From positions 2,029 through 66,028 of the forward strand of contig JAJDZN010000124.1 in assembly GCA_022824585.1 (NCBI GenBank): a stretch of 64,000 nt of DNA. The letters are read 5' to 3'. The notes beneath the pieces are model-generated. The model made no database searches. It was given only the letters and a program-made list of their open reading frames with translations, and was not told where the DNA came from. This DNA comes from Bryobacterales bacterium. GTDB taxonomy: Bacteria; Acidobacteriota; Terriglobia; Bryobacterales; UBA6623. The stretch's first letter is position 1. Every line of letters begins with the position of its first letter. Positions 50,702-62,228 of the stretch are shown piece after piece. The position numbers and the translations under genes are program-made.

Positions 50702-51082
50702 ATGAAGATCAAGCCCATCAAGTGCAACGCGGACTACGACGCAGCCTCGACTGCAATCGACAGTCTTATGGGCGCCGCGCCAGACACACCCGAGGGCGAC
50801 GAGCTCGAGGTTCTGGTCACGCTCGTAGAGGCGTACGAAGCCGAGCGCTGGCCAATTGAGGCACCGGACCCCATTTCAGCGATCGAACATTTCATGGAAG
50901 CGCACGGCCTCCGGCAGAGGGACTTCGCCGCCCTGATTGGATCCCAGCCACGAGCCTCTGAGGTGCTAAACCGCCGTCGTCCCCTGACCTTGTCGATGAT
51001 CCGTGCCTTGTCGAGCAAGTGGAACCTCCCGGCCGATGTCTTGGTTCGTGAGTACGACCTCACGAAGGCTCCGGCCGCTTGA
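50702..51082 (+). CDS. higA: HigA-family antitoxin (XRE HTH)
   Basis: Typical COG5499-like layout: an N-terminal EYD/A..ID.L helix, then the HTH GLRQRDFAALIGSQPRASEVLNRRRPLT. GAGGG lies upstream of the ATG. Confidence 0.85.
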   Translation: MKIKPIKCNADYDAASTAIDSLMGAAPDTPEGDELEVLVTLVEAYEAERWPIEAPDPISAIEHFMEAHGLRQRDFAALIGSQPRASEVLNRRRPLTLSMIRALSSKWNLPADVLVREYDLTKAPAA

Positions 51083-51381
51083 TCACTGTTGGGACGAGCC
51101 CGAGGCCTTTCGCCAAACGAGCCGGCGCGATCGTCGCGTCTGTGCGCATTCGCATTCATCCTGCCGAGGATTGCAACGTCACCGAATGCGTTCGGGCGGG
51201 CGAGCATTGGCGCCGCAGGCTTGGGGTTTCCATGCGCGCACCATGTCGCCCTGCTCCAGCGTCCGGCGCGTCCTTGAGTGTGCTAGTCTCCAACACGGGG
51301 AGGCGCCATGGCGCAGGTGTCGCCGGCCGTGGGGCCGGCACTGCTGTCCGTGGTGGGCCTGCCTCCCCTTGGAAGCCCGCG

Positions 51382-53763
51382 ATGAACGCTTGCTTGCGCC
51401 TCGGAGCGCTGTTGATGGTGGGTTCCGCGCTGTCTTCGGGCGCGAGCCGCGAGCGATTGGAACAGGCTCTCGACAACGAAATCCGGCCGCTGCTTGCGAC
51501 CTACTGCATCCGTTGCCACGGCCCCGAGGTACAGACAGTCGGAATCGACTTCAGCGTCTTTGACGATCACGGCTCCGTCCTTCGCTCCCGCCCTCTGTGG
51601 CTGCGTGCCCTGCGCGTGCTGCGCGAGAACGAAATGCCCCCGGCCGGAGCGCAGCCGACTGTTGAGGAGCGCCGGCGGATGGTCGCGTGGATCGACGCCG
51701 CCGTCAACAATCTCGATTGGAGCGAACACCGCCAGCCGGGATCGGTCACGATCCCCCGCCTCAATCGCGAGGAGTACAACAACACCATCCGCGACCTGAC
51801 CGGGCTTGACCTGCGCCCGGGAGACGCGTTTCCAGCGGACGGGCAGGGCGAAAGCGGGTTCCGCAACGACCGAGACGGGCTCTTCGTGGCCCCGGTCTTG
51901 GCCGAGAAGTACCTGCAGGCCGCAGGTCGCGTCGTGGACGAGCTGATCGCTACCAAGACGGAGAAGGATCCGCTCAACGTTCGTCTGGAAATCGAGGATT
52001 TCTTCCGCACCGAGACGAATCACGAGTTCACTCCTTACGGTCTTGACCTGCGCAATTACCAGCAGACGGTCTACCGCTACGTCACATTTCCTCGGTTTGG
52101 CCGCTACCGCTTCCGCGTCCGGGCTTGGGGCGAGTCGCCCGCCGAGGGCCAGCTGCCCGGTGTCACGCTGCGTGTCGGCGGGCGCATGGTGGGCCAGTCG
52201 CATGTGGCCGCCGATCCCCAATTTCCCGCCATCTACGAATTCGAAGCGAACATCCCGCGCGGCAGCCACCGCGTATCGCTCCATTGGTTCAAATCCCCGA
52301 CTGCCCTGACGAACGACCACAACCGCCGCTTGGCAGAAGAGCATCAGCGGGCACGGGAGCTGGCCAAGGCCGAGGGCAAGAAACCGCCAGCAGCCGTCGT
52401 GCTCTTGTCCTTGGACTGGGTCGAGGTTGCAGAGGCGCTGGAAGCAGGACAGGACGGCTCGCTGGTCTGGACTGCCGCGCCTAGTCCGGGCCTTGACGAT
52501 CGACAGGCGGCTCGGCGCATCATCGCGACGTTCGCGCAGCGCGCCTATCGGCGGCCTGCCCGCCCGGACGAGGTTGACTCGCTGCTGGCGTTCTATGGCC
52601 GCGCAGCCGGGCGGGGAGAATCGTTTGAGCAGTCCGTGGGATTGGCGCTGCGCGCCGCGCTGGCCTCGCCGAAGTTCCTCTTCCGACACGAGAGTGGCGG
52701 CGCTGCGGCCGGCGATTACCGGCTGGACGACTTCGAGCTCGCGTCCCGGCTGTCGTACTTCCTCTGGATGTCGATGCCCGACGCGGAACTGATGGACCTA
52801 GCCCGAGCGGGGTCCTTGGGAGACCCGCAGACCTTGGAATGGCAAGTCTCGCGCATGATCGCTGATCCCAAGTCCGAGGCCTTCATCGAGGCCTTTTTTG
52901 GACAGTGGCTGGGCTTCGCTGACCTCGGCGGCACGCTCAAGCCCGATGATGTCGCTTTTCCCGAGTTCACGCCGGCCCTGGGTGAGGCTATGGTGCTGGA
53001 GGCCAAGAGGTTCTTCGGCCGGATCGTGCGCGAGGATCGCAGCCTGCTGGAGATCCTGGATTCCGGCTACAGCTATCTCAACGAGGATCTCGCCAAACAC
53101 TACGGACTGGAAGGTGTGGTTGGTCGCGAACAGCGACTGGTAGAGTTCGAGGACGCGCGCAGGGGCGGCGTGCTTGGCATGGGGGCCATCTTGGTGGCGA
53201 CCTCGCTGCCCACGCGCACGAGCCCGGTAGTGCGCGGAAAGTGGGTCCTCGAGACCATGCTCGGCGAGGAATTGCCGCCTCCTCCGCCTGACGCCGGCGA
53301 ACTGGCCGAGCCAGGCGAAAGCTCCGCGGGCATGACCATGCGGCAGATGTATGAGATGCACCGCGACGAGCAGCGCTGCGCCGTCTGCCATGACGAGATC
53401 GATCCGATCGGCTTCGGGCTGGAGAACTTCGACGCCATCGGCCGCTGGCGCGACAGCGACAACGGACAGCCGATCGATGCCACCGGGACGCTGCCGAGCG
53501 GGGAGAGCTTCGCGGGTCCGGTGGAGTTGAAGAAGATCTTGCTGGGGCGGAGCAGAGAATTCGCCGAGATGATCAGTGGGCAGATGCTGGGTTTCGCTTT
53601 GGGCCGAAATCTGGAATACTATGACCAGCCAATCGTCGAGGAGATCAGCCGCGCTGTGATCCGCAGCGACTACAGCGCGCGAGCGCTGATCACCGAGATA
53701 GTTGCCAGTTATCCGTTCCGCTTCCGGCGGGGCGCCGCGGACAGCCGCGAGGAGAGCGAGTGA
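51382..53763 (+). CDS. DUF1587/DUF1592/DUF1595/DUF1588/DUF1585-family protein (cytochrome c-like N-terminus)
   Basis: Signal peptide, CIRCHG, and the C-terminal CAVCHDEIDPIGFGLENFDAIGRWRD. The ATG at 51382 is preferred; the track ORF has a low-complexity extension back to 51079. Confidence 0.85.
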   Translation: MNACLRLGALLMVGSALSSGASRERLEQALDNEIRPLLATYCIRCHGPEVQTVGIDFSVFDDHGSVLRSRPLWLRALRVLRENEMPPAGAQPTVEERRRMVAWIDAAVNNLDWSEHRQPGSVTIPRLNREEYNNTIRDLTGLDLRPGDAFPADGQGESGFRNDRDGLFVAPVLAEKYLQAAGRVVDELIATKTEKDPLNVRLEIEDFFRTETNHEFTPYGLDLRNYQQTVYRYVTFPRFGRYRFRVRAWGESPAEGQLPGVTLRVGGRMVGQSHVAADPQFPAIYEFEANIPRGSHRVSLHWFKSPTALTNDHNRRLAEEHQRARELAKAEGKKPPAAVVLLSLDWVEVAEALEAGQDGSLVWTAAPSPGLDDRQAARRIIATFAQRAYRRPARPDEVDSLLAFYGRAAGRGESFEQSVGLALRAALASPKFLFRHESGGAAAGDYRLDDFELASRLSYFLWMSMPDAELMDLARAGSLGDPQTLEWQVSRMIADPKSEAFIEAFFGQWLGFADLGGTLKPDDVAFPEFTPALGEAMVLEAKRFFGRIVREDRSLLEILDSGYSYLNEDLAKHYGLEGVVGREQRLVEFEDARRGGVLGMGAILVATSLPTRTSPVVRGKWVLETMLGEELPPPPPDAGELAEPGESSAGMTMRQMYEMHRDEQRCAVCHDEIDPIGFGLENFDAIGRWRDSDNGQPIDATGTLPSGESFAGPVELKKILLGRSREFAEMISGQMLGFALGRNLEYYDQPIVEEISRAVIRSDYSARALITEIVASYPFRFRRGAADSREESE

Positions 53764-55094
53764 TGGCACGCAAGAGAATTTCCCGGAGAGCGGTATTGCG
53801 CGGTGCCGGGGTGACGATGGCACTTCCGCTTCTCGACGTGATGGAACGGGCGCGGGGGGCAGCGCGCGTCGCCACCGGGACGGCCCCGGTGCGACTGGCC
53901 ACGCTGTTCCACCCCAACGGCGTCTACCCGCAGAACTGGGATCCGGACGGAGTCGGGCGCGATTACAAGCTGTCCCGCATCCTCGAGCCGCTGGCTCCGG
54001 TTCGCGACCACGTCAGCGTGATCTCGAACCTGGGCACTGGGGCGCAGGGCCACGTTGGCGCCACGTCCGCATTCCTGACCGGCACTCCGCTGCACAAGAA
54101 AGCGGCAGGACGGATCAACACGCCCAACATGGGCACCTCGCTGGACCAGTTCGTAGCCGAGCGGATCGGTGGCAGGACCGGCATGCCTTCGCTGGAAATC
54201 GGGGCAGAACCGCCTCGTTCGGGCGGAGAGAACGGACTGGCGATCTCGTACGCCAACACCGTTTCGTGGCGCTCCGACAACACCAAGGTCGATCCCGAGA
54301 TCGAGCCGCAGGCCGTCTTTGACCGGCTGTTCGGGGTCAGCAAGAAGACGCGACGGCAACTCGCCGACGAGGCCAGCATCATCGACCACGTGCTCGACGA
54401 TGCCAAGAGCCTGCGCGCCGGGGGCAGTGCCGGGGACCGGCGCAAGCTGGACGAGTTCCTCACCTCGGTGCGCGACGTGGAAGGCCGCATCGAGCGCAAT
54501 CTGAACCCGGCCGACACCGAGGCCGAGTGGAAGCCCGTGATCGAGCCCGAGCTGTTCAGACCCGAGGCCGGTATCCCGCAGACGCGAGACGAACATCTGC
54601 GGCAGATGCTGGATCTGATGGTGCTGGCGTTCCAGACCGACACCACGCGCGTGGCGACGTTCATGATGGCGCACGGCTTCAGCCGCCAGAACTTCACGTT
54701 CTTGGATGGCGTCAACGGAGACCATCACTCGATCTCGCACCACAAGGAGAATCCCGAGCTGACCGAGCCCTACACCATCGTCAGCCGCTGGTATGTCTCG
54801 CAACTTGTCTACTTGGTCGAGAAGATGGGCGCCGTCGACGAGGGCGAGGGGCGCTCGCTGCTGGACAACACAATGATCCTGTACGGTTCGGCGCTGAAGA
54901 ACGGCAACGGCCACACCACGCAGAACCTGCCCGTCCTGCTGGCTGGGCGCGGTGGCGGCAAGCTCAATCCCGGGTGCCGGATCGTGCTGCCGGAAGAGAC
55001 GCCGATCACGAACCTCCATCTGACGCTGGCGCAGCACATGGGGGTCGACGCCGACCGCTTCAATACAAGTACTGGCGTGATCGCCGACCTGTGA
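53763..55094 (+). CDS. DUF1552 domain protein (Tat-like signal)
   Basis: ISRRAVLRGAGVTMALPLLD and the GDHHSISHH motif. Its start overlaps the upstream stop (TGATG). Confidence 0.85.
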   Translation: MARKRISRRAVLRGAGVTMALPLLDVMERARGAARVATGTAPVRLATLFHPNGVYPQNWDPDGVGRDYKLSRILEPLAPVRDHVSVISNLGTGAQGHVGATSAFLTGTPLHKKAAGRINTPNMGTSLDQFVAERIGGRTGMPSLEIGAEPPRSGGENGLAISYANTVSWRSDNTKVDPEIEPQAVFDRLFGVSKKTRRQLADEASIIDHVLDDAKSLRAGGSAGDRRKLDEFLTSVRDVEGRIERNLNPADTEAEWKPVIEPELFRPEAGIPQTRDEHLRQMLDLMVLAFQTDTTRVATFMMAHGFSRQNFTFLDGVNGDHHSISHHKENPELTEPYTIVSRWYVSQLVYLVEKMGAVDEGEGRSLLDNTMILYGSALKNGNGHTTQNLPVLLAGRGGGKLNPGCRIVLPEETPITNLHLTLAQHMGVDADRFNTSTGVIADL

Positions 55095-55195: not shown

Positions 55196-56152
55196 TCACT
55201 CGCCGAGAAATGCTTCCAGCTTGGCCTTTGCGTCGCTGAAGTAGTCCGGCAAGTCCTCCACCGCGCCGCCGATTTCGAACACGAGCAGGCCCTCGTATTC
55301 GATCTGTCGGAGTTTCGCTATGAGGCGCGGGTAGTCGACGAAGCCGTGGACTAGCGGCTTGTGTTCGGCCCAGGTATCCGGCTCGATGTCGTGGACGTGC
55401 ATATGGAAGATCTTGGGCCCTAGCGCGTCGATGATCTCGTGCGTGACGTCGTTATAGGCTCTGATCCCGGCGGCCGTTCCCCTTTCCTCAGGACCCACCC
55501 GAGCGACTAGCTCGGCGTAGTTCTTCTGGTGGCCCACGTCGATGGTCGCGCCGACGTGGTCGTGATCGACTTCGCGAACCAGTCTCGTGAAGTCCGCCAC
55601 GGATTCGGGATAGCCGGTCTCGAGGGCTAGCCGAAAGCCGAAGTCCCGCGCCATGTCTCCCCAGCGGCGAAAGGTGCTGATCAGCATCGGCCAGGCGTCT
55701 TGCAGGGACAGATGCGCGGAACGCTGCACATGGATGTTGGCCAGTTCGGCGCCGACGAAGGCCGAGGCCTCGAGAGCGACGTCAATCCGCTCGACCCCGA
55801 ACGCATGGGACGGCCCGAACGGCGAGAAGTAGGGCGTGTCGACCCATGGCAGGTGCGTGGAGACGTAGCGGAACGGGTCCACTGCCGCCTTGAGCCGAGC
55901 CCGGCCCTCGGCCCCAAGATCTCTGAATTCAAAGCCGGGCGGCACGCCCGGGCGCGCCGCCACCGGACCCATCGGGTGCAGTTCGATGGTCTGGAAGCCG
56001 AGGTCCCGCAAGATCCCGATTGACCGATACAGTCCGTATCCCGGGAAGTAAGGGTTTGCTCCGATGACGGCCGGGTCGAGGCCGCGCTTCTGCGCCTGGG
56101 CCTTGATGGCGGCTGCTCCGAGAGAAACCTGGAGAAAGCGACGGCGGTGCAT
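55196..56152 (-). CDS. sugar phosphate isomerase/epimerase (xylose isomerase-like TIM barrel) with Tat signal
   Basis: MHRRRFLQVSLGAAAIKAQA followed by a TIM-barrel pattern (IELH, LALETG, HMHVHD). Confidence 0.85.
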   Translation of the reverse strand: MHRRRFLQVSLGAAAIKAQAQKRGLDPAVIGANPYFPGYGLYRSIGILRDLGFQTIELHPMGPVAARPGVPPGFEFRDLGAEGRARLKAAVDPFRYVSTHLPWVDTPYFSPFGPSHAFGVERIDVALEASAFVGAELANIHVQRSAHLSLQDAWPMLISTFRRWGDMARDFGFRLALETGYPESVADFTRLVREVDHDHVGATIDVGHQKNYAELVARVGPEERGTAAGIRAYNDVTHEIIDALGPKIFHMHVHDIEPDTWAEHKPLVHGFVDYPRLIAKLRQIEYEGLLVFEIGGAVEDLPDYFSDAKAKLEAFLGE

Positions 56153-56229
56153 GAACCCTCCCTGTCTGGCCTGGGCGGCCGCGACAGCGGCCATTTTGGC
56201 ACGGCCCGGGTCCGCGGCGCGCCGATCGG

Positions 56230-56736
56230 TCAGTCCTCGTCTCCGACGACCTCCACCGCCACGGCCCCAGCCGCGCGAAGCGACTCTGCGAGTCTTGCGG
56301 TGTCTGGCGCCCCCGCAACTTGCAGCACCACGCCGAGGTCCGGCAGGGCCGGCACGGGAGCGCGCTTACGCCCGCGGAGCAATCCGGACTCCCACAGCAG
56401 GGCTGCGAATATGCCGATGACCGCCCCGGCCATGGTTGTTTCGAAAGTGACCACGCCGGTTGCCCAGCCGGAATTGATCGGCATCCCGCCGGTGATCAGC
56501 GGATAGTCGCGCTGGATCCAGTACATCAGCGCGGTCGCTCCGCCGCCCACAGTGATTGCCGAGAGCACAGCTGCTAGCGACATGCGGCTGCGCCTGGCCA
56601 GCGGAGCGGGGTCCAACTCCACCGGTCGCAACGAATAGAGCTCCATCGCGCTCTTGGAGATTCCCGCAGCGGCCAGATCGCTGATCGCCGTCGCGGCGTG
56701 CTCGCCGCACGAAAACTCAGCGTGCACGTACTCCAT
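56230..56736 (-). CDS. actD: DUF3341 protein (ActD-like)
   Basis: An N-terminal soluble domain followed by two TMs. It sits directly after an NrfD-like gene, overlapping it by 20 nt. Confidence 0.7.
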   Translation of the reverse strand: MEYVHAEFSCGEHAATAISDLAAAGISKSAMELYSLRPVELDPAPLARRSRMSLAAVLSAITVGGGATALMYWIQRDYPLITGGMPINSGWATGVVTFETTMAGAVIGIFAALLWESGLLRGRKRAPVPALPDLGVVLQVAGAPDTARLAESLRAAGAVAVEVVGDED

Positions 56737-58045
56737 CGTCGTACTCCCAGATGGCAATGATCGGAAACGCCTTGACGAACAGCAGGTACAGCAGCACCAT
56801 TGCCGCGAATGTCCCCGCTGTGATCGAGAGCTCGATCCAGCTCGGCGCGTAGCTGCCCCAGGCCGCCGCTAGCGGCGGGGTTGACAGCGTCGGAACCACG
56901 ATCAGGAACCGCTCGAGCCACATCCCGACGAGCACTGCAGCGCTGCTGACGGCAATGGTCGGGATGCTGCGCAACTTCGAGATCCCTAGCAGGACGAACG
57001 GGATGACGAAGTTGCAGGCCACCATCGTCCAAAAGAACATGCCGTAGAGGCCGTGTTCCCGGATTTGGAACACGCGGATCTCGGAGGGCAGGTTGCCATA
57101 CCAAGTGGTGAGGTGCTCCGAGAACGTGAAGTAGCCCCAGATCAGGCTCATCAACAGCAGCAGCTTGCTCAGGTTCACGAAGTGGACTTCGCGAAGATAC
57201 TTCTCCAAGCCCATCATCTTGCGCAACGCTGCCATGACCAGCACCAGCGCAGCAATTCCGCTGAAGATCGCGCCGACCACGAAATACGGCGCGAAGATCG
57301 TGTTGTGCCAAGTCGGCATGACCGACATCGAGAAGTCGTAAGCGACCACCGAATGCACCGAGACCGCGATCGCCAGGATCACAACCGCCATCAGCTTCAT
57401 GGAACGCTCCAAGGCCTGCCATTGCCGGTCCGAGCCCGTCCATCCGAGCGACAGGGCCCGATAGATGCGACGCTTCGCTCCCTTGCTGTGGTTCGCCAGC
57501 TCGGCTAGGTCCGGGATCAGGGGCAGGTAGAGATAGATGACGCTGCCCGACAGGTACGTCAGGATCGCGGTCAGATCCCAGAACAGCGGAGAGCGAAAGT
57601 TCGGCCACAGCAGGCGCTCGTTGGGATAGGGCAGCATCCAGTAGAAGAACCACGGGCGGCTGATGTGGATCAGGGGGAACAGGCCGCCGATCATCAAGCA
57701 GAAGACGGTAATCGCTTCGGCCGCGCGGGTGACGGGCTTGCGCCATTCCGCTCCGGTCAATCGCAGGATCGCGGAAATCAGCGTTCCGGCATGCGAAATG
57801 CCGATCCAGAAGACGAAGTTGACGATGTAGAAGCCCCAGTAGACCGGCCGCCGGACACCTGTGCTGCCGAAACCGTTAACGATCTGGTAGCCCCATGCGA
57901 ACAGAGCCCAGGCCACGACCATGCCGCAAACGGCTACTCCCGCCAGATACGGCGCGCTGGCACCGCGCATGCGCCCGAGCAAGTCGGCGCGGACGCTTGC
58001 GTGGCTCGAAGCCGGAGTCAGGGCTGTGGTCGGAACGGCGTCCAT
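56717..58045 (-). CDS. actC: NrfD/PsrC-family polytopic quinone-interacting membrane subunit (ActC-like)
   Basis: 442 aa and about 10 TMs. The WGFYIVNFVFWIGISHAGTLISAILR block is typical of NrfD. Confidence 0.85.
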   Translation of the reverse strand: MDAVPTTALTPASSHASVRADLLGRMRGASAPYLAGVAVCGMVVAWALFAWGYQIVNGFGSTGVRRPVYWGFYIVNFVFWIGISHAGTLISAILRLTGAEWRKPVTRAAEAITVFCLMIGGLFPLIHISRPWFFYWMLPYPNERLLWPNFRSPLFWDLTAILTYLSGSVIYLYLPLIPDLAELANHSKGAKRRIYRALSLGWTGSDRQWQALERSMKLMAVVILAIAVSVHSVVAYDFSMSVMPTWHNTIFAPYFVVGAIFSGIAALVLVMAALRKMMGLEKYLREVHFVNLSKLLLLMSLIWGYFTFSEHLTTWYGNLPSEIRVFQIREHGLYGMFFWTMVACNFVIPFVLLGISKLRSIPTIAVSSAAVLVGMWLERFLIVVPTLSTPPLAAAWGSYAPSWIELSITAGTFAAMVLLYLLFVKAFPIIAIWEYDDGVRAR

Positions 58046-58078
58046 CGCTGCAAATGCTGGGGCGCGCGAGTCGTGGCG

Positions 58079-58807
58079 CTAGTCGGCCTTCTCTAGATAA
58101 AACACGCGCGGCTTGGTGCCGAGGCTCTCGAGCAGCTGCCCGGACCGCCCGCTGCCGAGCTGCCTGGCGACCTTGCTGTTGGCATCGCTCATGTCGCCGA
58201 ACACCATAGCCTCGGCAGGACAGGACTGCACGCAGGCCGGTTGCACGTCGCCGTCTGCCAGCTCGCGACCGTCGGCGTCCGCATCGAGCTTGGCGCGCTT
58301 GATCTTGTGGGCGCAGAACGTGCATTTCTCCACGACGCCCGACGGGCGGATGGAAACGTCCGGGTTGAGCTGCAAATTCAGCGGCTCGGCCCACTCTGGG
58401 GCGAACCAATTGAAGAAGCGAACCGTATAGGGGCAGTTGTTGGCGCAATAGCGCGTGCCGATACAGCGGTTGTAGATCTGGACGTTGAGGCCCTCGGCGT
58501 TCTGATAGGTGGCGTTGACCGGGCAGACCGGCTCGCAGGGAGCCTCGTCGCACTGCTGGCACATCACCGGACGGTACTTGACCTTGATGTCCGGGAACTC
58601 GCCCTCGTAATAGCGGTCGATGCGAATCCAGTGCTTCGTGCGGCCCATAGCCGCTTGGTCCTCGCCGGCGGTCGGGACGTTGTTCTCCGAGGCGCATGCC
58701 ACGACGCACGCCTCGCAGCCGGTGCAGCGGTCTAGGTCGATCGCCATCGCCCACTGGGGCGTCCGCTCCGCACCTTGCTCGGCTTGCTGAGTGGTTTGTT
58801 CGGCCAT
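58079..58807 (-). CDS. 4Fe-4S ferredoxin-type iron-sulfur subunit (ActB2-like)
   Basis: Multiple Cys clusters: CTGCEACVVAC, CQQCDEAPC, CIGTRYCANNCP, CTFC. Confidence 0.9.
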   Translation of the reverse strand: MAEQTTQQAEQGAERTPQWAMAIDLDRCTGCEACVVACASENNVPTAGEDQAAMGRTKHWIRIDRYYEGEFPDIKVKYRPVMCQQCDEAPCEPVCPVNATYQNAEGLNVQIYNRCIGTRYCANNCPYTVRFFNWFAPEWAEPLNLQLNPDVSIRPSGVVEKCTFCAHKIKRAKLDADADGRELADGDVQPACVQSCPAEAMVFGDMSDANSKVARQLGSGRSGQLLESLGTKPRVFYLEKAD

Positions 58808-58821
58808 CGAGTTCCTCCGTT

Positions 58822-60963
58822 CTAGACTCTGTGTGGCGGCAAGTCCCGATCCTGCCGCGAGAACTGCACGAGCCGCGCGCCCCCGGCAATCTTCTCGATG
58901 CTAATCGGCGTCGGGCCCATGGCCGGGCAGCCCGTCCGTTCGTCACGCGCGTCGCCCACGATGACCATGGGGTTCGCCCCCCGGCCAGAGGCGTAGCGCC
59001 CGTAGGAGGCGTGTCCTTGGCCCAGGGCCATGGACACGACCCCGGGAATCGCCGCAGGGTTGACGTAAACCGGGGCTTCCAAGGCGCCATGTTCGGATCG
59101 AATCCGCACGGTGTCACCGTTGGCGAGGCCGAGCCTTGCAGCGGTTGCCGGGTCCACCTCTACCGGCAGCCCCCACAGCGCGCTCGACGTCGGATCGGGC
59201 AGTTCTTGCAGCCACGGGCGGTTGGCGCCGCTTCCAGAGCCGAACTGCGGCGACTCGTACGCTTGAAATACGACGCCCGCCTGTTTGGAGGCTATCTCGA
59301 ATGTACCCAAGCCCCCCGGCGTCGCTGGCGGCTTCCCGGAGGGCTGTCGCTGCCAGCCTCCGTCTTGGAAGATCTTTGCCTCGAAGTCCGACGCCGAAGT
59401 TCCCGAACCGGCAGATTCGACCGCGGAGTGCAGCGTGCTCACCGCCTCTTCTACCGTAATTTCTTCGAACGGCCGTTCCGCCGCCTCCGCCAACTGAGAC
59501 AAGACGGTCGCGGTCAGTCGCGAATCGTAGAGTGGCGCGACAAACTCCCCAGCCGCCGCAAACGATGGGGTCGGCGATACGGCAGGCACTTCGAGCAGCG
59601 CCTGCTCGAGCGGATCGTGGTCGGGCAGGATGAGGTCCGCGACCGCGGATGTGTCGTCCAAGAAGGGCGAGAAGCTGATAACAGTCTCCGCTTCGGCCAG
59701 CGCGCTCTGGCTCGCCGGGGCGTTGTAGGCCGGATTCACGCCGTCGACCAGCACAACGGAGGCTTGTCCCAAGCGCTCGGGCCAATCCGCGGAGAAGGCG
59801 CTTTGCGGGGCAAGCAGGCCCAACGGCTCGGTCGGTGGAATCACTCCGCCGGGCTTGCCCACGCAGCCGAGCAGCCAGTTCAAGGCTGAGGCGGCCGCGA
59901 CAGCGTCGGCGGAGTTCTGGCGCACCATCGAAGCGCCGGCCACCACCACGGGCGCGGACGCTTGGGCCAGCTCGGACGCCGTCTGCCGGATTGCCTCGAC
60001 GGGCACTCCGGCCGCCGCCGCGGCCTGTTCGAGATCGACGTCAGCAAAGACCGATACAACGCTCGTCGGCGCGTCGGCGATCTGCTCGCTCAGCAGGACC
60101 TGTCCGATAGCGAGCGCGAGCGCGAGTTCTCCGCCAGGCCAGACGGGCAGCCATCGATCGGCATTCCAAGCCGTGAGCGAGAATCTGGATTCGGCGTGGA
60201 TGAGCCGCCCGCGCAGCTCGCGGCGCCCTTGGCGCATGTGCCCGTAGCGCCTCGAATACAGCACCGGCGACGCCCACCCGCCAAGGAAGTCCGCTCCTAT
60301 TGACAGCACTAGGGTGGAGTCTTGGATCTCATATAGCGGCAGGCCGCTTCGTCCGAACACGCGTGTGGAGGCCTGGCGCTCGGCGGCGAAGTCGCCGACT
60401 CCGATGCTGGTGGCGGGCGGGGCGCCGATGGCGTCTAGAAAGCGGGCGATGTTCTCCGAGCGAACGCCTTCGCGGGCTCTTGCCAAGAACAGGATCCGGC
60501 CGGGATCGGCGGCCGCCAAGGCCCGGGCGGCTTCCGCGATCGCGTCATCCCATGAAACGGCTTCGAACTGGCCGGAGGCGCGCGGGCCGACCCGCTTCAT
60601 CGGGCTGCGCAGCCGGTCCGGGTTGTAGAGCGACTGCAGGGAAGCGTGGCCGCGGGCGCAAAGTCGCCCGCCGCTGACGGGATCGAGGGGGTTGCCTTCG
60701 AGTTTCTTGACGGCTGCGATCTTCTGGCGGACAAGTTCGCCGTCGACCTGGATCTCGCGTTCCGACGCCATCACCCGGGCTAGCGTGCCGCAGGCCGCCG
60801 AGCACTCGCCGCACACGCTTGGGTACCACTGCTCCACGCCGACCGGGACGCTCTCCTCGGGCACGAGCAGGGGGATGATTTCCTCGGCTTGGCGGCCACA
60901 GGCGCCAGTTACCGCGCCGCCAGAGGCGGTCCCGACGAGCTTTACGAAGTTACGCCGGTCCAT
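58822..60963 (-). CDS. molybdopterin-oxidoreductase-fold subunit with Tat signal (ActB1-like)
   Basis: MDRRNFVKLVGTASGGAVTGAC, followed by CGECSAACG...LCARG (a CX2CX3C...C pattern). Confidence 0.85.
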   Translation of the reverse strand: MDRRNFVKLVGTASGGAVTGACGRQAEEIIPLLVPEESVPVGVEQWYPSVCGECSAACGTLARVMASEREIQVDGELVRQKIAAVKKLEGNPLDPVSGGRLCARGHASLQSLYNPDRLRSPMKRVGPRASGQFEAVSWDDAIAEAARALAAADPGRILFLARAREGVRSENIARFLDAIGAPPATSIGVGDFAAERQASTRVFGRSGLPLYEIQDSTLVLSIGADFLGGWASPVLYSRRYGHMRQGRRELRGRLIHAESRFSLTAWNADRWLPVWPGGELALALAIGQVLLSEQIADAPTSVVSVFADVDLEQAAAAAGVPVEAIRQTASELAQASAPVVVAGASMVRQNSADAVAAASALNWLLGCVGKPGGVIPPTEPLGLLAPQSAFSADWPERLGQASVVLVDGVNPAYNAPASQSALAEAETVISFSPFLDDTSAVADLILPDHDPLEQALLEVPAVSPTPSFAAAGEFVAPLYDSRLTATVLSQLAEAAERPFEEITVEEAVSTLHSAVESAGSGTSASDFEAKIFQDGGWQRQPSGKPPATPGGLGTFEIASKQAGVVFQAYESPQFGSGSGANRPWLQELPDPTSSALWGLPVEVDPATAARLGLANGDTVRIRSEHGALEAPVYVNPAAIPGVVSMALGQGHASYGRYASGRGANPMVIVGDARDERTGCPAMGPTPISIEKIAGGARLVQFSRQDRDLPPHRV

Positions 60964-61077
60964 GCTAGCCAGCCTCCGCACAGGCGGTTTGCCCGCGCCC
61001 GCGAAGCGTACACGGCAGAGCCGCTGGGATGGCAGGGCGCACTATGGCTTGCACGGTCGGTTGCATCAGGGGCTGGC

Positions 61078-61641
61078 CTAGTAGTGGCATGCCAGGCAGT
61101 CGTCGGTGGCGGAATTCTCGCGGTGGCACTGAATGCAGGAGCCCATGGTGTGCGTCACCGCCTTGACCGCGACCGTCATGGACGCCACGTCACCGTGGCA
61201 CTGAGAGCAAGCGATTTCCGCCCTCGCGTGCGGCGCGTGGCGAAACTGCACCGCAGCCGTCTTGGCAAACCCGTAGATGCGTTCCCAGGGCACCTCGTGC
61301 TTGCGCTCCCAGTATTCGCTCAGGCGCACCACCTCGGGTAAGTCCGTCGCGATGAACTGGTGGCACAGCATGCACTTGCGAATTGACGGCAGTCCGGCCG
61401 AGTCGCGCGATGTCGCGCCCTCGTGGCAGTCAGTACATTGCATGCTGGCTTTCTCGATGTGGGCCGTGTGCGAAAAGCCGATCGGCTGCTCCGCCGCCGA
61501 CGCGGTCTGAACGACTAGGAGCAGCAAGGCTGAGAGCATTGCCAGGGACACGAGGAATTCGGCCCAAACGGATGTACAGGATAACCCAGCCGCGGATGCC
61601 GGCTCCAGTCGGACCGCGCGGGCAGCGGGTCTGGCCTTCAT
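61078..61641 (-). CDS. actA: pentaheme c-type cytochrome (ActA-like)
   Basis: Five CxxCH motifs: CTDCH, CMLCH, CSQCH, CIQCH, CLACH. N-terminal TM anchor. The ATG at 61641 overlaps the upstream TGA as ATGA. Confidence 0.85.
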   Translation of the reverse strand: MKARPAARAVRLEPASAAGLSCTSVWAEFLVSLAMLSALLLLVVQTASAAEQPIGFSHTAHIEKASMQCTDCHEGATSRDSAGLPSIRKCMLCHQFIATDLPEVVRLSEYWERKHEVPWERIYGFAKTAAVQFRHAPHARAEIACSQCHGDVASMTVAVKAVTHTMGSCIQCHRENSATDDCLACHY

Positions 61642-62228
61642 CCGTCTCCCAGTGCCTTCTCGAGAAGTGCTCGGCACGCGGGCGAGTATTCGATCTGGAG
61701 GGCCGCCGATCGGCCGGCCTCGGACATCTTCCTCCATGTTTTGCGCAGGATGTTGACCATGCTGTCTTCGCCTTGGTCTCCGGCAAAGGGCGCGAAATAG
61801 TGGTCCAAGAACACCAAGCACGCTACGTCCTCCAACAGCTGTGCTAGGCGGTCGGTCCTGAAGCGCTCCTTGCGGATGATGGATTGGACGCGCAGCACGC
61901 TGCTGTCATCGAAGCCGCAGTCGCGCATGATCGCGCCGGCGGTGTCGGCGTGGAAGCGCCCGAGCTCGCTGCGCCAAGCGAGGTAGGCACGCCTGCCCGC
62001 AGGGTAGCTGTCGCGCGGGATCTCCCAGCGGCGGATGTGTTGGGCTCGCACCGCCAGCCGCACTTCGTCCGGGGCGTTCGGCTCGAGCCGGTCCAGCCAG
62101 GCCGACATGCGCTTCGCGTATGACAGTTCCTTGGGCTCGCCGCCGGGCTCGCGGTTGGGATCCTCCGCGTTCGCCGCGTCGAACATTTCCATGCAGCGGC
62201 GCACGCGGGCCTTGTCCACATCGCTCAT
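61638..62228 (-). CDS. DUF4202 domain protein
   Basis: VRLAVRAQHIRRWEIPRDSYP...YLAWR...VACLVFLDHYF blocks. The ATG at 62228 overlaps the rsmE TGA as ATGA. Confidence 0.7.
   Translation of the reverse strand: MSDVDKARVRRCMEMFDAANAEDPNREPGGEPKELSYAKRMSAWLDRLEPNAPDEVRLAVRAQHIRRWEIPRDSYPAGRRAYLAWRSELGRFHADTAGAIMRDCGFDDSSVLRVQSIIRKERFRTDRLAQLLEDVACLVFLDHYFAPFAGDQGEDSMVNILRKTWRKMSEAGRSAALQIEYSPACRALLEKALGDG

Follow-up and report, generated by a model that had tools for sequence, protein, structure and literature searches.

A five-gene actA-actB1-actB2-actC-actD operon of a Bryobacterales bacterium as a probable minimal alternative complex III

Can an operon that holds the core of an alternative complex III (ACIII), with its ActB subunit split between two genes and with neither ActE nor ActF encoded behind it, still serve as a quinol-oxidizing respiratory complex, and what is to be made of the intact cysteine motif in its molybdopterin-fold subunit? 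The operon in question occupies positions 56230-61641 on the minus strand of a 64,000-nucleotide stretch of DNA (the window), which is contig C33 of a metagenome-assembled genome (MAG) of a Bryobacterales bacterium (6.18 Mb, 341 contigs, 91.8% complete). An initial annotation, made from the sequence of the window, had described an ACIII-like module and suggested that it might stand between Psr/Qrc-type enzymes and ACIII. Here the operon was compared with the solved ACIIIs of Rhodothermus marinus (6F0K), Flavobacterium johnsoniae (6BTM), Roseiflexus (6LOD) and Chloroflexus (8K9E), with related loci in other genomes and with the rest of its own genome. We consider it probable (roughly 0.6) that the operon encodes a minimal menaquinol:cytochrome c oxidoreductase, an Acidobacteriota-type ACIII.

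Subunit identities and the absence of ActE and ActF

Five tightly packed genes were found in the order actA-actB1-actB2-actC-actD, in agreement with the gene order first proposed. The same order was seen in every relative examined and the operon was present in 24/24 sampled genomes of the genus; the close homologues that carry names all come from Bryobacterales, phylum Acidobacteriota.

The first gene, actA (61078..61641, minus strand like the other four), encodes a membrane-anchored pentaheme cytochrome c of 187 aa, counted from the ATG at 61641, with five CxxCH motifs, an N-terminal hydrophobic anchor and the Pfam domains Cytochrome_C7, CIII and c3_2. Its best matches among solved structures were the ActA subunits of Chloroflexus (8k9e_A), Rhodothermus (6f0k_A), Roseiflexus (6lod_A) and Flavobacterium (6btm_A), with E-values from 1e-21 to 6e-15. 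The candidate ATG shares the nucleotides ATGA (61638-61641) with the TGA of the upstream DUF4202 gene (61638-62228), and the real start of actA could be further downstream.

The iron-sulfur subunit encoded by actB2 (58079..58807) matched the B2 domain of Rhodothermus ActB (6f0k_B residues 795-1024) at 265 bits and contains four cysteine groups, with three [4Fe-4S] motifs and one [3Fe-4S] motif. The latter is the Group III motif CIGTRYCANNCP (58430..58465), which has the form CIGTRYC(A/S)NNCPY in common with Rhodothermus ActB; because Thr takes the place of the second Cys, a signature of this cluster type, a [3Fe-4S] cluster is predicted here, beside the quinol site. The pattern CxxTxxCxxxCP was found in 79 B2 sequences of ACIII-like loci, whereas Cys stands at the Thr position in 8/8 QrcC proteins from true Qrc loci (L116-L123), a set fetched by a phylum-wide draw in which QrcB scored 456-970 bits against the NCBIfam cut-off of 440.

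The 442-aa membrane subunit ActC (56717..58045; NrfD family, PF03916) is the quinol-binding member of the set and aligned with Rhodothermus ActC (6f0k_C) at an E-value of 1e-94, against 5e-17 for ActF. It retains all of the quinol-pocket and proton-path residues named for the Rhodothermus protein (PMC5928083, PMC8076601), that is W82, I86, F89, P136, H139, S164, L166, D169, V250, D253 and R395; the equivalents of R. marinus His139, Asp169, Asp253 and Arg395 are His127, Asp157, Asp237 and Arg379. Overlapping actC by 41 nt, actD (56230..56757) encodes a small two-helix membrane subunit (DUF3341, PF11821) that scored 66.8 bits against a cut-off of 25.7 and weakly matched Roseiflexus ActD (6lod_D). 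ActD has been described as exclusive to ACIII (PMC5928083).

Neither ActE nor ActF is encoded after the operon, as the initial annotation had observed, and searches of the genome and the genus extended this result. The whole genome gave one PF03916 match and one PF11821 match, both from the operon itself. Queries for the missing subunits were taken from canonical ACIII-caa3 operons of same-order relatives (L021-L024), which encode ActA, fused ActB, C, D, E and F followed by CoxB and CoxA. When the whole genome, 91.8% complete, was searched by tblastn with ActE (four sequences) and ActF of these relatives, only ActC itself was matched. The same ActC query picks up ActF in the canonical loci at 66-95 bits, indicating that the search has the power to find ActF. 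No second ActC/ActF-like gene was detected in 31/31 genomes of the genus, many of them assembled in one to three contigs, each of which contained exactly one ActC-like match, and a hidden Markov model (HMM) of ActE found no such gene in the loci of eight relatives (L013-L020). A split actE/actF operon elsewhere in the genome, a possibility raised at the outset, was likewise not found by tblastn or PF03916, and on these results an ActF encoded elsewhere was rejected. A complex lacking both subunits is mechanistically plausible, because F. johnsoniae still transfers electrons to aa3 when actE is deleted (PMC8552683), and ActF, a peripheral subunit, does not bind quinol (PMC5928083, PMC8076601).

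ActB1 and the distribution of its FS0 motif

The actB1 gene (58822..60963) encodes a 713-aa MopB-fold subunit, separate from the iron-sulfur subunit. The protein begins with MDRRNF, which contains an RRNF twin-arginine translocation (Tat) motif, and GGAGG stands 9 nt upstream of the start. Pfam matches were obtained to PF04879 Molybdop_Fe4S4 (35.8 bits), PF00384 Molybdopterin (about 72 bits) and PF01568 Molydop_binding. An AlphaFold2 model showed the standard MopB fold (predicted local distance difference test 87, predicted template-modelling score 0.88), for which Foldseek returned ArrA (template-modelling score 0.76), PsrA (0.75) and ActB (0.70-0.71). Just past the Tat signal, Ala21-Cys22 (60898-60903) was invariant in 120/120 B1 homologues (at least 52% identity) and aligns with Cys74 of Rhodothermus ActB; the pair is a possible lipobox, in which case B1 may be a Tat-exported lipoprotein.

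The FS0-type cysteine motif reported in the initial annotation is present and is called Molybdop_Fe4S4 by Pfam. It is formed by CGECSAAC and LCARG in a CX2CX3C...C arrangement, with Cys51-x2-Cys54-x3-Cys58 at 60790..60813 and the fourth residue, Cys102, at 60658-60660. All four cysteines were invariant in 120/120 of the same homologues as well as in a 30-sequence alignment reaching 28% identity, and they align with the FS0 cysteines of two genuine MopB enzymes from the same genome. The Arg that follows the fourth cysteine was also well kept (CARG in 110/120). Rhodothermus ActB, whose MopB-like domain has been described as cofactor-free (PMC5928083), has a gap or a non-Cys residue at all four positions, and the canonical fused ActBs of the relatives likewise lack them.

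Where real molybdoenzymes have their Mo-ligand Cys, B1 has Asp191 (60391..60393); the aligned residue is the ligand Cys in ArrA and in MopBs from the same genome (contigs C293 and C108). Asp is the Mo ligand in Nar-type enzymes. Asp191 was kept in 118/120 of the close homologues, while across the wider ACIII-like clade, which shares this operon, its place is taken by S, E, G, N, P, H or Y. Three genuine MopBs from this genome score 162-245 bits on PF00384, two to three times as much as B1. The NCBIfam models for catalytic subunits scored far under their cut-offs (PhsA 148 against 694 bits, ArrA 131 against 1600, DmsA 118 against 778), which suggests that B1 lies outside the catalytic molybdoenzyme families with which it might have been grouped. 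B1 also diverges faster than B2 and ActC, with 46% identity to the homologue in the related locus L017, compared with 74% for B2 and 66% for ActC.

We read B1 as a non-catalytic scaffold of molybdoenzyme descent, without a cysteine Mo ligand and with a predicted relic FS0 cluster. A residual active site is conceivable, given an Asp191 that is conserved in the close clade, though variable in the wider one, and a confident model with a standard MopB fold nearest to ArrA and PsrA. The cluster would most likely be structural or a redox dead end, like N7 of complex I. A bolder and decidedly unlikely proposal is that the conserved FS0 is a redox-active continuation, inside B1, of the FeS2-4 wire of ActB2, which is otherwise unexplained; it would create a second electron entry or exit and branched flow. 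Such a cluster could even feed a residual site in which Asp191 holds a metal or pterin, and the complex of Acidobacteriota would on this view survive today as a functional intermediate between catalytic complex iron-sulfur molybdoenzymes and ACIII.

A scan of species-representative genomes yielded 80 loci, which were annotated with HMMs built for this analysis. FS0 was kept in 27 loci with A-B1-B2-C-D only, all from Acidobacteriota (Bryobacterales, Terriglobia, Acidobacteriaceae, Acidiferrales). It was also kept in A-B1-B2-C-D-E loci of Chloroflexota, in A-B1-B2-C-D-E-F loci of Gammaproteobacteria, three of which follow coxBA, and in loci of Gemmatimonadota and Eisenbacteria that combine a fused ActB with C-D-E-F. 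The motif was lost from the canonical fused ActB of Bryobacterales relatives and from the split B1 of Dehalococcoidia, which is encoded with two ActC copies. The second gene in this last layout was not ActF: in L065, L079, L086, L089, L093, L099 and L106 (Dehalococcoidia, Thermomicrobia), the FS0-less split B1 is accompanied by two tandem full-length ActC-type genes. Among the true Qrc loci, FS0 was lost in three (L116, L117 and L121), including the two top scorers on the QrcB model, and the full CX2CX3C...C pattern was kept in five QrcB proteins above the NCBIfam cut-off (L118, L119, L120, L122 and L123; Thermodesulfobacteriota). With five QrcB proteins retaining the motif, the statement that QrcB has no cofactor may therefore not apply across the whole family.

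A B1 tree of 66 rows was obtained by a quick LG+G4 search, with support from the Shimodaira-Hasegawa-like approximate likelihood ratio test (SH-aLRT) only; two genuine MopBs of the same genome served as outgroup, and PsrA, ArrA and TtrA were not included. An ACIII-like clade (SH-aLRT 99) was sister to the clade of the eight true Qrc loci (98). The window B1 fell inside the ACIII-like clade, in an Acidobacteriota/Nitrospira split-B subclade, and outside the Qrc clade. At least four changes of FS0 and one fusion of B were counted on the tree. The FS0 changes are read as losses because the outgroup has FS0, and FS0 is therefore the ancestral and majority state of ACIII/Qrc-like B1 proteins.

These results revise several expectations attached to the locus. 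FS0 in ActB1 is not the rarity that had been implied, since it occurs with a full C-D-E-F set in Gammaproteobacteria, Gemmatimonadota and Eisenbacteria and has been published for iron oxidisers (PMC4643136). This partly bears out an objection foreseen in the initial annotation itself, that canonical ActB1 sequences might have the motif too. The description of canonical ActB1 and QrcB as cofactor-less agrees with the solved ACIIIs, all of which lack the motif, but may not extend to the full ACIII operons and the five Qrc loci that keep it. Similarly, the suggested intermediate position between Psr/Qrc and ACIII is apt for the ancestral characters retained (split B, FS0 and one NrfD subunit) but not for B2, ActC and ActD, which are plainly ACIII and not Qrc. 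Neither the ActE/F-less layout nor FS0 is special to this locus; both belong to a widespread, already noted variant of the ACIII family in the broad sense.

Electron route, partners and alternative readings

The genome encodes an aa3-type oxidase on contig C30, the CoxB of which has no heme c domain, and no bd oxidase was found in the genome. An operon at C65:24274-29821 (minus strand; L126) encodes a Rieske protein, a cytochrome b split into b6-like and petD-like parts, and an octaheme cytochrome c (998 aa, eight CxxCH motifs). The genome therefore has a bc-type complex besides the ACIII-like module, and the module is not its sole possible quinol oxidiser. Two stand-alone ActA-like pentaheme genes were also found, at C220:25797-26339 (minus strand) and C45:2289-2939 (plus strand) (loci L124 and L125). 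They share 37-39% identity with ActA, a signal peptide is evident in one of them, and neither lies beside any complex. At least three ActA-like matches, ActA itself counted, were present in 28/31 genomes of the genus. The two stand-alone pentahemes are candidate soluble partners of the module.

For the Acidobacteriota-type ACIII proposed here, we infer the direction of electron flow, the acceptor, the cofactor content and the proton coupling as follows. Menaquinol would be bound at the periplasmic face of ActC and its electrons would pass to the adjacent [3Fe-4S] cluster of ActB2, then to the five hemes of membrane-anchored ActA and on to a periplasmic acceptor, probably a soluble c-type cytochrome that serves the aa3 oxidase of contig C30. 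Through ActC and ActD this flow may be coupled to proton movement. ActB1 would act as a scaffold, with its FS0 cluster at the distal end of the row of B2 clusters.

Several points weigh against this proposal. The absence of ActE and ActF rests on a 91.8%-complete MAG, and the genus-wide count covers ActF only. Since the Rieske/cytochrome b/multiheme c complex is present, the oxidase could be supplied without an ACIII, and the operon never adjoins oxidase genes, unlike the canonical ACIII of the relatives. B1 gives a higher HMM score with QrcB (253 bits) than with solved ActB (74 bits). The FS0 cysteines are strictly conserved, as is Asp191 in the close clade, which suggests that B1 is possibly more than a scaffold. 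Finally, sequence does not reveal the direction of electron flow.

The strongest of the alternatives, which we regard as unlikely, is that the complex runs in the Qrc direction, passing electrons from reduced periplasmic cytochromes (filled by periplasmic dehydrogenases or external donors) to menaquinone, with energy conserved as in QrcABCD. The best NCBIfam matches of A, B1 and B2 are indeed QrcA, QrcB and QrcC, there is a single NrfD subunit as in Qrc, and the operon has no oxidase linkage. In addition, an uphill flow towards quinone has been suggested for the ACIII-like clusters of iron oxidisers (PMC4643136), and transcripts of the Qrc genes in an acidobacterial MAG have been reported from anoxic conditions (PMC10564751). 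However, the scores are far under the curated cut-offs (QrcA 83 against 180 bits, QrcB 253 against 440, QrcC 251 against 400). The NrfD subunits of the eight true Qrc loci reached only 24-35 bits on the ActC HMM and differ in their quinone-site residues, the His or Asp of ActC being replaced by Asp or Glu; at the position of ActC His139 (Rhodothermus numbering), QrcD has Asp. No ActD was detected in these eight loci, and no periplasmic donor enzyme was identified beside the operon. Taken together with the position of B1 outside the Qrc clade, the sub-threshold score and the distance of QrcD from ActC led us to reject the identification of B1 as QrcB. Before the phylum-wide draw supplied true Qrc loci, no true QrcB was found in three Thermodesulfobacteriota or Syntrophaceae genomes, and none above the cut-off among ten checked from the top 150 representatives.

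It is more doubtful still that the module is the inner-membrane quinol-to-periplasm link of extracellular or metal electron transfer, delivering electrons to stand-alone multihemes and not to an oxidase. ACIII-like ActABCD clusters distant from oxidase genes have been proposed for iron reduction in MBNT15 (PMC9386147), and the conservation of the stand-alone ActA-like pentahemes across the genus would suit such a route. Against it, no porin-cytochrome or outer-membrane conduit genes were found near the operon, the downstream neighbours vary between relatives, and the genus has aerobic-chain genes. Least probable is a B1 that still works as a molybdo- or tungsto-enzyme, its metal bound by Asp191 and supplied with electrons through FS0, in a quinol-linked reductase or oxidase of some periplasmic substrate: the invariant FS0 with its Arg, the Nar-like Asp191 and the ArrA and PsrA folds favour it, but the ligand position varies in the wider clade, the family scores are low, B1 evolves fast, QrcB and ActB, the sole relatives studied, have no Mo (PMC13059093, PMC5928083), and the pentaheme ActA and the [3Fe-4S] cluster form a complete electron path without B1.

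The next gene after the operon, at 55196-56194, encodes a xylose-isomerase-like TIM barrel with a Tat-like RRRF motif, in line with the Tat-signal isomerase of the initial annotation. The barrel was rejected as a member of the module: it adjoins the operon only in the closest relatives, lies 9 kb off in L015, and in more distant relatives did not turn up anywhere in the 20-kb loci. The genes downstream of the operon differ among relatives (Suf genes, DUF-type pairs and others), which also argues for a barrel outside the module. Upstream, DUF4202 and rsmE precede actA in the nearer relatives L013, L014 and L018 and were not found beside actA in the loci of five others (L015-L017, L019 and L020). 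On the plus strand of the window at 51079-55094, an 894-aa open reading frame is followed by one of 444 aa with a Tat-like N-terminus, both without an NCBIfam match; the pair adjoins the operon only in the closest relatives (L013 and L014). A promoter and terminator scan returned 0 promoters and 6 terminators, against 3.8 terminators expected. Elsewhere in the genome, a MopB gene at C269:14362-15636 (plus strand) has one in-frame TGA inside its PF00384 match (216 bits) and may encode a selenocysteine-containing formate dehydrogenase.

Relation to known complexes

ACIII is understood from four model complexes, and these represent a derived state in which B was fused, FS0 was lost and ActE and ActF were added. 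Among Acidobacteriota, a phylum dominant in soils, the operon described here has the standard form, which in this genus stands beside a Rieske/cytochrome b complex. Whether it takes part in oxygen respiration, runs in reverse or uses its fifth iron-sulfur cluster are questions whose answers would refine models of soil bacterial respiration, as well as the view of how molybdoenzymes were recruited as scaffolds. The locus points to a gap in characterisation and is not a surprise, the variant having been noted previously in genome papers.

With canonical ACIII the operon shares a pentaheme ActA, an ActD, an ActC with the same quinol-pocket residues, and a MopB-like unit combined with an iron-sulfur unit that has one [3Fe-4S] and three [4Fe-4S] motifs. 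Common to both as well is a B subunit with a Tat signal and, after it, a conserved Cys. It differs from the solved complexes in that ActB is encoded by two genes and B1 retains the four FS0 cysteines. Unlike canonical ACIII operons, it lacks the monoheme ActE and the second NrfD-like subunit ActF and is not adjacent to cytochrome oxidase genes, and its B1 is merely 23-30% identical to the canonical fused ActB of same-order relatives. Judged by its gene products, the locus lacks two canonical features of ACIII, ActE and ActF, and with its FS0 cysteines may also depart from the description of B1 as free of cofactors.

Other counterparts are the ACIII-like actAB1B2CDEF clusters of neutrophilic iron oxidisers, in which ActB1 has a CX2CX3CX27C [4Fe-4S] motif (Kato et al. 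2015; PMC4643136). These clusters and similar gammaproteobacterial ones resemble the operon in their split ActB, FS0-type B1, ActC and ActD, and both fall in the 'ACIII-Qrc clade'. Unlike the locus, clusters of the iron-oxidiser type retain ActE and ActF, and those found here often follow coxBA (L051, L062); their B1 proteins also belong to a different subclade from that of the window.

Compared with QrcABCD, four of the five parts correspond, namely a multiheme cytochrome c, a split MopB-like subunit, a four-cluster iron-sulfur subunit and a single NrfD protein. The catalytic role of the large subunit appears to be gone in both, and some Qrc members have FS0 too. Qrc nevertheless lacks ActD, the Thr of B2 corresponds to a Cys in QrcC, QrcD and ActC are only remotely related, and all of the NCBIfam Qrc cut-offs are missed by the operon. 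A further parallel is offered by complex I, where the MopB-like domain of Nqo3/NuoG has lost Mo-bisPGD and has kept N7, an FS0-equivalent [4Fe-4S] cluster that lies off the main path and matters for stability. Although complex I is another complex, with this domain on the cytoplasmic side, B1 may by analogy be likened to the N7-bearing domain of Nqo3/NuoG.

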